DNA of 64,000 bases from positions 23,737-87,736 of the forward strand of contig CAZTKG010000002.1 of assembly GCA_964613815.1 (NCBI GenBank). The letters are read 5' to 3'. Positions 57,579 to 63,113 of the stretch are shown here, one piece after another. The position numbers and the translations under genes were made by a program. A model generated the notes under the pieces. That model had not been told where the DNA came from. It did no database searches and worked only from the letters and a program-made list of their open reading frames with translations. The stretch comes from an uncultured Gammaproteobacteria bacterium. GTDB lineage: Bacteria > Patescibacteriota > Patescibacteriia > UBA9934. Every line of letters starts with the position of its first letter. Position 1 is the first letter of the stretch.

Positions 57579-57607
57579 GATTTTTGGAAATGAGAAGTCG
57601 TTCACCT

Positions 57608-57673
57608 AATACAAAAATACTCCGCTTAATTTAGCGAAGTACTTTTGGCGGGGCGTAGTGGAATGGGTTGGAA
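57608..57673. repeat. 66-bp direct repeat, copy 1 (contains a - strand intrinsic terminator: uacuucgc-uaaauuaa-gcggagua + U-run)
   Basis: ~95% identical to the copy at 58432-58497. Lies just downstream of the ribD_C gene on the - strand. Confidence 0.85.
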
Positions 57674-57693
57674 GATGGTTTATTCAAAGTCCT

Positions 57694-58419
57694 TCACTTA
57701 TTTAGCACTTTATACTTCACATGAAGAAATGATTTTTTCAATTGTTCCGCTGTGATCAATTTTAGGGGTACGAGCTTGTCGAGTTCGCTTGTGCGATGCA
57801 GTGCCTCTCCATCCATCAGGGTTGGTGTTGTGGACCCACCTACCATAATCGGGGCAACGACCAAGGAAATGTGATCAATAAGTCCAGATCGCAACAGGTG
57901 TGCATTCATCGTTCCACCAGATTGAACGGTCATTTGTCTTACACTGTGTTCGTTATAGAGTGATGCAAATAGTTTTTTAAAGTTTATCTTTCTCGAAAAG
58001 TGCATCACGGTTATATTATCAAGTTCTTTTTGAAGTTTGTAAGCAGGATGTTTCTTGTTTGTTGTAGCGATGAAAACATGTTCCAACCACTTTGAGAGAT
58101 GCTGGATGCCAGACGCTTTTAGGTGGGGCTTGTTGTCAACAAGAACAAAACGAACAGGAAGACTTTCTTTTGGGCTCTTGCGTTCATTGATGCCAACCTT
58201 GGCCATAACTTTTCCGGTATTAAACGAGACAAGATCTGTTTGTTGTTCTAATTCGTAATACTGACTCAATCCTTCCTTCACACCTGTAATTTTTTTCCAG
58301 TCTTGATCTACATCGAGTTCATCCGTGTCTCCACTGGAGATCTTTCCATCTAGACTCGACAACATGAAGAGGGTGGTTTTTGGGCGTTTCATACCTAACA
58401 ATTCTATCATTTTTTCCAA
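57694..58419 (-). CDS. RibD C-terminal domain / dihydrofolate reductase-like reductase
   Basis: PKTTLFMLSSLDGKIS...VQSGGTMNAHLLRSGLIDHISLVVAPIMVGG (RibD_C/DHFR-like fold). AT-rich and atypical versus its neighbours. Confidence 0.75.
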   Translation of the reverse strand: MEKMIELLGMKRPKTTLFMLSSLDGKISSGDTDELDVDQDWKKITGVKEGLSQYYELEQQTDLVSFNTGKVMAKVGINERKSPKESLPVRFVLVDNKPHLKASGIQHLSKWLEHVFIATTNKKHPAYKLQKELDNITVMHFSRKINFKKLFASLYNEHSVRQMTVQSGGTMNAHLLRSGLIDHISLVVAPIMVGGSTTPTLMDGEALHRTSELDKLVPLKLITAEQLKKSFLHVKYKVLNK

Positions 58420-58431
58420 CCATCATGTCCG

Positions 58432-58497
58432 AATACAAAAATACTCCGCTTAAATTAGCGAAGTACTTTTGGCGGGGCGTAGTGGAGGGGGTTGGAA
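58432..58497. repeat. 66-bp direct repeat, copy 2
   Basis: See copy 1. Lies 13 nt upstream of the ribD_C start codon and ~120 nt downstream of the sigma gene. Confidence 0.85.
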
Positions 58498-58615
58498 TAT
58501 TTTTTTCTCACTCGTTCTAATGGCAAGGGAGCTGTAGAGTGTGTAAGGGTTTAAAAAATTTCAATAAAAATAGCTCAACTGCTCAGGTGACGATATGTCA
58601 TCTAAACAGTCGAGC

Positions 58616-59626
58616 TTAAGTCGTTGCCACGATGAGAGATCGGAGTTCTTCCGCGATTCGAATGAGTTCTTCGATGTCTGACTTTGTAAAACCTAGCGTT
58701 TCGGCAAGTTTTTCCAGTCCAGCCTTTTCGATTTGACGAATGCGCTCGCGGGTAAGTTTGTAGCGCTCTCCCACCTCCTCAAGAGTCCGTTGTGACTTAC
58801 CATGAAGACCAAGACGCAACGTAAGAATAGTTGCAGTGCGTGGTTTCTGGCTGTCGACCCATGCTTCGATGCGTTGCAGTGCACTTTCGGTAGTCTTCAA
58901 CTTTTCCTTCGTCTCAAGGAGCTTTTCGCCTTGCATGGCAGGTTTCGACAGATAATCAGCGGGACTGAGCTTGAAGTCCTCGTCTTGATTATCCTCCCCT
59001 TCAAACGAGTCAGTATAGGCTGAAAGAAGCTTGAGCGCCCTTCCAACCTTGGCGAACGACGGTGGTTCGGTGTCGTTTGCCTCTGCAGCTCGTTTGATTT
59101 CCAGGTAGATCTCGTATGGCGTTGCATCTCGCATTTTCTGGCGAAAGACCGTCTCCTTGGCTTTAAGCACCTTGGAAAAATCATCTCGCACATGAATCGG
59201 GATTCTTCCTCCCGTGTTGCGTGCGTCAAAATCCGCAATGGCACGATGAATTGCCTGACGAATCCACCAGGTTGCGTAGGTGGAGAATTCGAATCCGCGA
59301 GAGTGATCGTATCGATAGACGGCGCGCATGAGGCCGATGTTGCCCTCCTGAATAAGGTCAAGCACAGTCATTCCGACGCGTGAACCTTGTTTCAGGTAGC
59401 CAAAGGCCATATTCACGACCAGTCGCAAATTGCGAACGATGACTTCATCAATGAGCTGTGACCTATGAGGCTCCGGAGCGTCTTGAATGCGAGCAAAGTA
59501 GTCCGCTCCATCGCCAGCCGTAAATACTGGAATACCAGTGATGGAATCCATGTATTTATGAAGCAGGTCCCTTGACCACTGACCCTCTCCGCTTTCTGCC
59601 TGTTTGACGAGCCAAGATGTGCTCAT
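58616..59626 (-). CDS. RNA polymerase sigma factor, sigma-70 family (regions 2-4), 336 aa
   Basis: Region 2 ([18 protein letters not shown]...[17 protein letters not shown]), region 3, and region 4 HTH ([27 protein letters not shown]). Confidence 0.85.
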
Positions 59627-61547: not shown

Positions 61548-61663
61548 ATTTTCTCCATGAAAAAAGATCGATTGACCTCTTTACTCCATCAAATTTTTTA
61601 ACTTTTGTCAATACACAAGATCTGCGCTTTACATTGACGGATTGACTTGTTTATGGGATATTT

Positions 61664-62941
61664 TTGTCCTCGTTCTTTCCATGGAGACTATCAATGCGTG
61701 CTACTAATTCTACCGAACTTGTTCGCTTGCACCGCGTTCACTTTGCGATTTTGTCCCGGGCATACACTTTAAGTTTGATGCTTGATACCCGAGGCGTGAT
61801 TCCTCCTCGAATGCTGTCTGCTGTAATTCAATTTACGGCTCTAGAAAAGATTCGACCTGAACTCGTTATTGAGTCGCTTACTGAATCCGGCCACCTTCTT
61901 TTTTCTGGTTCAGCTTGGGTGATCCGGCGCCCGCCGATGGGTGTCGACTTGCATGGCGATGAGCCGCGTCCAGTAACTGACGAGCAATTGCAGAATGTGG
62001 TGTTGCACTGGAGAGAGGGTGTGCGAGATCTTGCGGACAGCCATTTCCTCGATAGGCCACATCTGCATGTGCCACTGATTGCGGAAGAAGACTTGATTAG
62101 ATTGAACCTCGTCACTCCGAAAGACGATGCCGAAGGGGGTGCAAAAGAAGTATCGGAGCCGCCCCTGATCTTTCAAAAACCACCGCATCGTAATCCGATT
62201 CCAATTGGAGTCATAGAGCAGATTCTGGGCGATCATGCCGTGGTTGAAGGCCTGAAGGGTGGTGAGCTTACGCCACATCAATCCGGTCAGGTGCTTATGT
62301 GGCATTGCGGATCTCATGCGCTTGTCTTCCGGGTGCATCGTGCACTTGTAGCAATTGGACTATTGAACGCTTCTCGCGGGTGTGTTTCAGTGAGCTCGGT
62401 CGGGCGGAGTCTGATAGAGGCTCACTCCCCAGAAACGACACTTGTTTATGGGGCACAAATGGCAATTTTGCGTGGCGAGCCCGTGATTCGTGTGCCGTTT
62501 CGGCCGGTTTGGTTGGGTGGTGGCATGGCTCGCCTTGAGTATTTTGGTGAACGAAAGGTGCCCGCATCTACGAAAACCCAGAAGGTGATCCGGCGCGAGT
62601 TGCCGACTGTTCCAGAATTTGCGCGCGGGCAGGCTGTGCCAGCGTTCTTGGCAGACCATGCGCTTTTGGAGCGACTGAATGGCGGTCCTGTTTCGGTCAA
62701 AATTTCGGGGCTATTGTGCCGATATTACAAACCGGATTCCAATCAGCCTACAGTTTTCAGGGGAAGCTGTAAGCAGAGGGGATTTATTGAACCAATTGGC
62801 CGGAATGGTCAGCTGATCAATCGTCGCGGGCGGAATCCTTCTGCTCGATGGCGCGTAACAACGAAGGGGTATCAGCATATTCAAAAGAAAGGGGCGGAGC
62901 CAAGTCTTAGTGAAGAGGAGGCGCGCACATTCCTTGCGTAG
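61664..62941 (+). CDS. hypothetical protein (425 aa)
   Basis: Long ORF with balanced codon usage unlike the G/T-rich native + strand genes. No recognised motif. Confidence 0.55.
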   Translation: MSSFFPWRLSMRATNSTELVRLHRVHFAILSRAYTLSLMLDTRGVIPPRMLSAVIQFTALEKIRPELVIESLTESGHLLFSGSAWVIRRPPMGVDLHGDEPRPVTDEQLQNVVLHWREGVRDLADSHFLDRPHLHVPLIAEEDLIRLNLVTPKDDAEGGAKEVSEPPLIFQKPPHRNPIPIGVIEQILGDHAVVEGLKGGELTPHQSGQVLMWHCGSHALVFRVHRALVAIGLLNASRGCVSVSSVGRSLIEAHSPETTLVYGAQMAILRGEPVIRVPFRPVWLGGGMARLEYFGERKVPASTKTQKVIRRELPTVPEFARGQAVPAFLADHALLERLNGGPVSVKISGLLCRYYKPDSNQPTVFRGSCKQRGFIEPIGRNGQLINRRGRNPSARWRVTTKGYQHIQKKGAEPSLSEEEARTFLA

Positions 62942-62970
62942 GCTTGCGAGTCAGGTTTGGTTAGCTCACG

Positions 62971-62998
62971 TCACCTCCGTGCTGGAGGTGATTTTTTG
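62971..62998 (+). terminator. intrinsic terminator (cacctcc-gtgct-ggaggtg + T6)
   Basis: 7-bp stem plus T-run after the 61664-62941 gene. Confidence 0.7.
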
Positions 62999-63082
62999 TA
63001 AAATTTTGCACGGTCGGCAAAGGCGAGGGAGCAAGTGTTCCCCCAAACCCCTCCCGCTCGAATCCAACTCTTATCGCAACAG

Positions 63083-63112
63083 AAAAACCACTAGCAGAAG
63101 CTAGCGGTTTTT
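63083..63112. terminator. bidirectional terminator-like hairpin (A5-ccactagc-agaa-gctagcgg-T5) downstream of tRNA-Asp
   Basis: 8-bp stem with one mismatch, flanked by A/T runs. Confidence 0.5.
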
Positions 63113-63113
63113 C

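Follow-up and report, generated by a model that had tools for sequence, protein, structure and literature searches.

A block of about 5.5 kb (57600..63113) stands out from the 64-kb window analysed here, a stretch of contig CAZTKG010000002.1 from an uncultured bacterium, by the relaxation of a strand bias that is otherwise extreme. Composition profiles and four-fold site statistics place this block between the stop codon of a gene for a YibE/F protein (57578) and the 3' end of a tRNA-Asp gene. In the reading favoured here with moderate confidence, it represents a horizontally acquired and partly ameliorated islet, made of an accessory cassette for a zinc-ribbon/winged-helix protein, an RNase III and an RpoD-like sigma factor, plus a co-regulated orphan gene and an inserted gene for a RibD_C-like reductase. 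Coordinates and matches to Pfam and NCBIfam bear out the gene content listed in the initial annotation, in the order RibD_C, sigma-70, RNase III, Cys-rich 355-aa protein (all on the minus strand) and 415/425-aa orphan (plus strand). The presence of a sigma factor and of rnc, which that annotation had found surprising, is explained by their being part of a recurrent three-gene cassette together with the Cys-rich gene, and the idea of stray housekeeping genes does not hold: both are best seen as components of a rare accessory cassette rather than as displaced housekeeping genes.

The background against which the block is seen is a bias of the host chromosome. Outside the block, the plus strand has a mean GC skew of 0.380 (sd 0.101) and a mean TA skew of 0.200 in 500-nucleotide (nt) windows, and in 2-kb windows the GC skew lies between +0.2 and +0.5 everywhere up to 57 kb. 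At four-fold degenerate sites, counted in plus-strand terms throughout, native genes on the plus strand have G 0.42 and C 0.06 (GC skew 0.75), and native genes on the minus strand have G 0.53 and C 0.05 (GC skew 0.83). The latter are found at 18-28 kb and are real genes according to Pfam, encoding RelA/SpoT, TopA, a Mur ligase, DprA, Pth, Der and LytR. Since native genes on either strand give a four-fold GC skew of 0.75-0.83, the bias tracks the chromosome strand and not the coding strand or transcription. It is also old enough to have reshaped protein composition, with a ratio of GT-codon to AC-codon amino acids of 1.84 in native plus-strand genes and 0.77 in minus-strand genes. Housekeeping or highly expressed status gives no exemption, because the genes for SmpB, IF3, L35 and L20, just past the window end, are fully skewed (0.74-0.80). 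It is best explained as an extreme mutational bias between the strands, of the kind linked to replication.

Within the block this bias is largely absent. The excess of G over C and of T over A on the plus strand, and its relaxation between about 57.6 and 63.1 kb, had been described from inspection of the sequence and are confirmed by skew windows and four-fold sites alike. Between 57.7 and 62.6 kb, the mean GC skew in 500-nt windows is 0.043 (sd 0.071, maximum 0.187) and the TA skew is 0.125, both below the values outside the block; in 2-kb windows the GC skew is 0.02-0.09 at 58-63 kb and then recovers at the window end. A 300-nt profile locates the left transition at about 57.5-57.7 kb, just past the YibE/F stop codon, and the right one at about 63.1-63.3 kb, at the tRNA-Asp gene. 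At four-fold sites the island genes have G 0.30, C 0.17, T 0.29 and A 0.24, a GC skew of 0.27 against the native 0.75-0.83, which upholds the earlier suggestion of a foreign composition (chi-square p = 4e-38 against native plus-strand genes and 1e-41 against native minus-strand genes). The ratio of GT-codon to AC-codon amino acids in the island genes of the minus strand is 0.99.

The loss of bias is not complete. The individual four-fold GC skews of the five island genes are 0.24, 0.20, 0.50, 0.22 and 0.27, so that all five lean the host way whatever their orientation, which fits partial amelioration in place. The proposal that the block is an old import is in line with this weak residual skew, as would suit foreign DNA that has been in the host for some time.

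The host itself belongs to a lineage of the Candidate Phyla Radiation (CPR) type, Patescibacteria-like and without sampled close relatives. In a search of 5.8 billion proteins and a scan of genome contigs, the nearest matches of the flanking YibE/F protein are 57-62% identical and come from Uhrbacteria and other Patescibacteria, and the loci of these relatives have neither gene order nor extreme skew in common with the window. A G/C strand disparity across whole CPR chromosomes has been reported for Candidatus Chazhemtobacterium Ch65, Collierbacteria and Beckwithbacteria (Kadnikov et al. 2020, PMC7143001), and with this precedent the host background is unusual but not new. As in those genomes, one strand of the window is strongly G-rich throughout, regardless of gene orientation. 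However, that paper gives 29.8% C against 15.0% G without an A/T disparity (PMC7143001), whereas the window combines a GC skew of about 0.38 with a clear excess of T over A, and the disparity is published for some Microgenomates, whereas the window host groups by its YibE/F protein with Uhrbacteria-like Patescibacteria. The portions of that paper drawn on here hold no mention of unskewed islands (PMC7143001).

The cassette is defined as three neighbouring genes on one strand, coding in turn for the Cys-rich protein, an RNase III and an RpoD-like sigma factor, and the window carries it from 61547 down to 58616. The first gene (60480..61547, minus strand) encodes a protein of 355 aa with an N-terminal domain containing eight conserved cysteines, a proline-rich linker, a further CxxC pair and a C-terminal domain. 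The N-terminal domain probably binds zinc, and the C-terminal domain is probably a winged helix, which would make the protein a DNA-binding one. With this protein as a query, phmmer returned 74 matches in 1.84 billion representatives, of which about 5-8 also have the C-terminal domain in common. The N-terminal consensus of the family is V[YF]CQxLGxxIPxxxCxEEQGQxGCxGCxAPxRxCExCK, with eight invariant cysteines. This eight-Cys domain (CxEEQGQxGCxGC...) constitutes an unannotated family with no Pfam model; it is sometimes duplicated and, among the matches, is also found fused to FtsK-gamma, MarR or DnaA-C helix-turn-helix domains.

The second cassette gene (59623..60345, minus strand) encodes an RNase III that scores 217 bits against TIGR02191 (cut-off 166). 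It is full-length, contains the domains PF14622, PF00636 and PF00035, among them a double-stranded RNA-binding domain, and the catalytic signature can be read in the translation as the motifs ERLECLGD and DLLEAFIGA. This RNase III is 41-45% identical to the cassette RNase III proteins found elsewhere.

The third cassette gene (58616..59626, minus strand; four-fold skew 0.20) has a start that overlaps the rnc stop by 4 nt and encodes a divergent RpoD/RpoS-like sigma-70 factor. Regions 2 and 4 are both present, which makes the protein a member of the sigma-70 superfamily (PF04542, 61.9 bits; PF04545, 40.3 bits; TIGR02937, 85.6 bits against a cut-off of 42.9), and Pfam does not detect regions 3 and 1.2. 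In the translation, region 2.4 (ATWWIRQAI) and region 4.2 (TRERIRQIE) are near-canonical and a region 1.2-like segment can be read. The likeness to group 1 and group 2 sigma factors (RpoD/RpoS) thus lies in regions 2 and 4, in the near-canonical helices for the -10 and -35 elements and in the region 1.2-like segment. The differences are that the protein misses all NCBIfam equivalog cut-offs for RpoD and RpoS (TIGR02393, 170 against 354 bits; PRK05658, 170 against 555 bits), that its nearest homologue outside its own species is 39-40% identical and any RpoD about 38-40%, and that it falls into a long-branched group with the other cassette sigma factors. The protein does not classify as a primary (group 1) RpoD, given the missed cut-offs and the detection by Pfam of regions 2 and 4 only.

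The best match of the sigma factor in both NCBIfam and PADLOC is MzaA, a component of the MZA anti-phage system with a sigma-70 domain, at 190 bits against a cut-off of 800. An MZA system was rejected, since this match is far below threshold and aligns the generic sigma domain alone, and the island has no other PADLOC match and the locus no other Mza component. Three Logan contigs (L007-L009) follow the island and leave it at position 59231, in sigma region 2.4; past this point they encode a canonical-looking RpoD C-terminus, read as proteobacterial-type, and then the start of a tRNA-like sequence. They were rejected as a variant sigma allele and most likely represent a k-mer chimera, present in three sequencing runs and joined at region 2.4, which is universally conserved.

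Besides the window, the complete cassette is found in four other contigs (L047, L052, L053 and L060, the L-numbers being labels of the contigs compared), and all its hosts are uncultured genomes. The three genes have the same order in every case, are tightly spaced or overlapping, and encode a sigma factor with regions 2 and 4. Their surroundings are different each time: the cassette lies between L32/NusB and GyrA in L047, between ProRS and HU/RNase Y in L052, beside a signal peptidase in L053, and between an HD-domain gene and a DEAD-box helicase in L060. A fifth contig, L057, encodes the Cys-rich protein and a sigma-like protein, with no called rnc.

In composition, the cassette is foreign-looking in one of these hosts clearly (L060) and in a second one weakly (L047). 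The four-fold GC content is 0.71 in the L060 cassette against 0.46 in its flanks (p 2e-15), with GC steps at the cassette borders and flank genes ranging from 0.35 to 0.67, and 0.70 against 0.58 in L047 (p 7e-6), where one flank gene is also at 0.70. In L052 (0.64 against 0.66, p 0.72) and L053 (0.76 against 0.83, p 0.056) the cassette matches its flanks. No convincing flanking repeats were found around the cassette in L060 and L047. Because the copies are only 27-46% identical to each other, no recent donor-recipient pair has been sampled. Since the cassette is rare and patchy, lies in a new context each time and is compositionally foreign in two to three of five hosts, the pattern fits repeated horizontal acquisition better than vertical descent, a fit that does not amount to proof.

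L047 has two RNase III genes 2 kb apart (8310-9002 and 10915-11616) whose products are 36% identical, one of them beside NusB and L32 and the other inside the cassette. With the latter, the window RNase III has 41% identity, against 33-34% with the copy beside NusB. In a neighbour-joining tree, the five cassette sigma factors group, with weak support, on long branches apart from canonical RpoD proteins, including those of CPR bacteria.

In the window, rnc and the sigma gene are preceded by a promoter and leader of their own (60350..60420, minus strand), with TTGACA-17-TAGGCT read by eye, the motif TGTCCTAGTTCTTTTCAC at 60355-60372 and a GGAGA ribosome-binding site; the leader measures 26 nt and ends in GGAGA. 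This promoter was not listed by the promoter scan. The terminator scan found a terminator-like hairpin after the Cys-rich gene (60432..60448, minus strand), which would separate this gene from rnc and the sigma gene in the window genome.

The orphan gene, divergently transcribed, has the same leader. It encodes 415 aa (61694..62941, plus strand; 425 aa from a TTG at 61664) behind a promoter and leader at 61634..61687 (plus strand), with TTGACG-17-GATATT, an upstream TG and the motif TGTCCTCGTTCTTTCCAT at 61665-61682, and ends in an intrinsic terminator (62970..62992, plus strand) with a 10-bp stem followed by a T-run. Its leader is an inverted copy of the rnc leader, 88% identical and directly before the ATG. 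The resulting 26-nt inverted repeat around the Cys-rich gene was considered as the ends of an insertion sequence and rejected, as both arms serve as promoter, leader and ribosome-binding site for the genes beside them; a CTA noticed by eye next to both arms is given no weight. The element TGTCC(N0-2)GTTCTTTCAC sits just 3' of the -10 hexamer. Among non-redundant loci from 62 sources (0.92 Mb before duplicate removal), the strict motif occurs three times, each time in a cassette leader (window rnc, window orphan and L053), and upstream of the cassette in L052 and L055 lies a shorter core, which the same scan did not find in L047, L060 and L057. Because the same leader motif precedes rnc and the orphan gene, the latter is tied to the regulation of the cassette.

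In Escherichia coli, the RNase III encoded by the rnc-era-recO operon autoregulates through its own leader. The window resembles this operon in having a bona fide RNase III at the head behind a conserved leader element. The downstream partner is, however, a sigma factor and not era, and the window leader has no demonstrated stable hairpin. The conserved element abutting the -10 hexamer may instead be a DNA operator.

The orphan protein has no homologue among 5.8 billion proteins or in Pfam, NCBIfam, PHROGs, PADLOC, phage and plasmid sets and the PDB, and its AlphaFold2 model is unusable (predicted local distance difference test, pLDDT, 34).

The block is a mosaic and not one unit, because the RibD_C gene differs in GC and sits between its own 82-nt direct repeats. 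This gene (57694..58419, minus strand; four-fold GC skew 0.24) encodes a RibD_C-like reductase of the dihydrofolate-reductase fold (PF01872, 65.7 bits against 24.1). It remains below the riboflavin-specific cut-offs (TIGR00227, 66.5 against 150 bits; TIGR01508, 54.8 against 186 bits), so that only the generic RibD_C fold can be assigned, and its PDB relatives are pyrimidine reductases. Its GC content, taken overall or at third positions, is 0.41; the other four island genes have 0.49-0.52 at third positions. The repeat, D1, exactly brackets the gene. Copy A (57605..57686) lies downstream of RibD_C and forms on the minus strand a hairpin followed by a T-run, terminator-like in appearance; copy B (58429..58510), with the same hairpin, lies about 105 nt downstream of the sigma gene and directly before the start of RibD_C. 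The hairpin was recognised by eye; the terminator scan did not report it. The two 82-nt copies are 89% identical, nearly identical over the first 60 nt, and the 42-nt core of D1 occurs only twice in the window. Such bracketing is the signature either of an insertion of RibD_C by recombination at the D1 sequence or of a local duplication, and it suggests that RibD_C is a separate, cassette-like single-gene insert.

Other repeats are found in the core of the island, which is partly palindromic in its layout: in addition to the inverted promoter/leader copies, the sequence downstream of the sigma gene (58554-58592) and that of the orphan terminator (62968-63007) match each other imperfectly in inverted orientation (the score is reached by 3 of 500 shuffles). 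Between the orphan terminator and tRNA-Asp, the segment 63035-63090 has a skew opposite to that of the host (23 C and 6 G on the plus strand). The G-rich tail of D1 and this C-rich segment do not form significant terminal inverted repeats of the island, as 72 of 1000 and 880 of 1000 shuffles reach the score. Neither a transposase family (Pfam and NCBIfam) nor significant inverted repeats at the block ends (repeat search) were found, and an insertion sequence or transposon was rejected for want of a transposase, of terminal inverted repeats and of a target-site duplication.

Taken as an import, the block would have entered a CPR/Patescibacteria-like genome with an ordinary balanced composition and, if a balanced donor is assumed, would since then have covered between about a quarter and a third of the distance to the host bias. 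One gain of the window cassette would be the 415-aa orphan gene, whose promoter and leader duplicate those of the cassette in inverted orientation, and the RibD_C reductase would have been gained separately and later, between the 82-nt direct repeats. Functionally, the cassette may be a self-contained circuit for transcription and RNA processing, in which the sigma factor would steer the host RNA polymerase to promoters of the TTGACA/TAnnnT type, the RNase III would process the resulting transcripts, and the Cys-rich protein would bind the TGTCC..GTTCTTTCAC element just after the -10 hexamer.

Several points weigh against an acquired islet. Neither a donor nor a closely related copy of any of the island genes came to light, and the case for transfer is built on composition and patchy distribution rather than on conflicting phylogenies. 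The nearest host relatives, at the 57-62% identity of YibE/F, have no common gene order and hence no empty site to show, all contigs of the host's own species carry the block, and neither the window nor the surroundings of the L047 and L060 cassettes contain mobility genes, attachment (att) sites, target-site duplications or terminal repeats. The accessory status of the sigma factor and RNase III is no more than probable. For the compositional contrast in the other hosts, the number of flank genes is small, and those of L060 differ widely among themselves. The clade of cassette sigma factors has a weak bootstrap value (33%, or 73% with L057 included), and the cassette RNase III proteins are not clearly separate from ordinary RNase III, the second L047 copy being 43% identical to the L052 cassette copy.

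A more far-reaching reading, rather unlikely, is that the cassette is an undescribed, autonomously spreading unit of "transcription takeover" in CPR-type bacteria, which would move without a recognisable recombinase and equip the recipient with a sigma/RNase III regulon of its own, recognisable by the TGTCC..GTTCTTTCAC leader. Spread might in that case occur by natural transformation, or the zinc-ribbon/winged-helix protein or the orphan protein might act as a novel integration factor.

Vertical inheritance of the cassette, possibly as the lineage's own sigma-rnc operon kept unskewed by frequent inversion, gene conversion or selection on mRNA structure, is unlikely. The deep divergence of the copies is what would be expected of old vertical genes, cassette and flanks agree in composition in L052 and L053, the sigma factor retains near-canonical promoter-recognition helices in its translation, and the four-fold composition of the island is near the strand-averaged native mutation spectrum. 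Nevertheless, no inverted repeats flank the block, which has a single orientation in all contigs sampled, and inversion cannot account for a GC-rich cassette in the lower-GC hosts L060 and L047. The RibD_C and orphan genes, outside the cassette, are equally unskewed, housekeeping genes of the same genome are fully skewed, and the family is far too rare for a core operon of a large clade.

The block had also been suggested to be an island inserted at a tRNA gene, and its right edge does lie where it was placed: the low-skew block stops at 63113, abutting the 3' end of tRNA-Asp (GTC) at 63114. This gene (63114-63190, minus strand; found by ARAGORN, Rfam score 66.6 bits) is the native right boundary and has a hairpin of its own (inverted repeat, 63080-63115); an Rfam search of the block matched this tRNA alone. 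A classical integrative island (the remnant of a prophage, an integrative and conjugative element or a similar island) that has since lost its integrase and att repeat would account for this exact border and for the foreign composition, and the gene on the tRNA side encodes the unclassifiable 415-aa orphan, which could in principle hide a novel recombinase. Yet no second copy of the tRNA-Asp 3' end exists in the window (21-mer, up to 3 mismatches), and local alignment of the tRNA to the left edge and to the whole island is no better than with shuffles. Searches of the five island proteins against Pfam, NCBIfam, PHROGs and PADLOC gave no integrase, recombinase, transposase, phage or defence family, apart from generic models of sigma factors and RNase III and the MzaA match far below threshold; this agrees with the initial annotation, which had seen no integrase. 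The orphan and Cys-rich proteins have no relatives in the viruses of IMG/VR, the phages of INPHARED or the plasmids of PLSDB. The same cassette has no tRNA neighbour in any of the four other genomes with a complete copy. Since att copy, integrase and phage or plasmid homologues are all missing, the case for site-specific integration comes down to the tRNA adjacency, and classical tRNA integration is decidedly unlikely; the adjacency is probably incidental, or the route of integration left no scar. The block resembles tRNA-side genomic islands, such as pathogenicity islands, in its sharp compositional break, accessory genes, tRNA 3' boundary and partial amelioration. It differs from them in having no integrase, att duplication or mobility genes, in its size of only 5.5 kb, in an anomaly that consists of missing strand skew and not of a GC shift, and in the location of its core cassette away from tRNAs elsewhere.

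Phages can encode sigma factors and RNase III-like genes, and the block could be conceived as a captured fragment of a CPR phage or plasmid, carrying an early "host takeover" module of sigma factor, RNase III and DNA-binding protein. The sigma factor matches phrog_351 and the RNase III phrog_28637 in PHROGs, and the compact, self-contained promoters and terminators and the orphan gene would suit such an origin. This is nonetheless improbable: structural, replication and recombination genes are missing, neither the Cys-rich nor the orphan protein has relatives in IMG/VR, INPHARED or PLSDB, the only viral matches of the sigma factor reach 47% identity over region 2 alone and have no rnc nearby, and the foreign-looking block amounts to just three genes in every host. 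An assembly artefact, i.e., a chimeric join of DNA from two organisms, is extremely improbable in spite of the metagenome source and of the Logan contigs L007-L009 that are chimeric inside the sigma gene, given that both junctions are identical over 11 kb (53-64 kb, 100% identity) in four metagenome contigs from three ENA assemblies and one JGI assembly, that L007 and L008 span the right junction independently, and that the island genes carry a partial skew in the host direction.

The value of the locus, on the reading as an acquired islet, lies in the near saturation of the strand bias, with C at about 5% of four-fold sites on one strand, which makes an imported segment unusually visible. The partial drift of the block offers a built-in relative clock for amelioration, and for CPR bacteria, in which horizontal transfer is difficult to prove, the block is a clean natural example for studying gene flow and amelioration. 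Compositional islands are a well-known kind of feature; the cassette, in which an RNase III recurs together with a divergent RpoD-like sigma factor and a predicted zinc-ribbon DNA-binding protein, and its behaviour appear undescribed, no description having been found in the literature searched. If it is a mobile regulatory unit, reduced genomes would have in it a novel route to a programme of transcription and RNA processing. For annotation purposes, the sigma factor and rnc of the window should not be taken by default as the housekeeping copies.

Besides the block, three more genes of the window are weakly skewed at four-fold sites, against about 0.8 in native genes: one for a PD-(D/E)XK endonuclease (13120-13548, plus strand; 0.33, low GC), one for a signal peptidase S26 (27811-28560, plus strand; 0.26, low GC) and a 200-aa open reading frame (ORF) without assigned identity (10581-11183, minus strand; 0.26), which lies just 3' of tRNA-Met (11276-11352). 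All three may be other small imports. About 1.7-2.5 kb past the window end, a called ORF of 286 aa (3102-3962 of contig L001) has a reversed four-fold skew of -0.44 in plus-strand terms of the window; it is either a spurious call on the antisense strand or a gene that is inverted or foreign. Finally, the segment 32634-42620 (plus strand) is one ORF of 3328 aa, followed by several co-oriented genes, one of which encodes bacterial TSP3 repeats.

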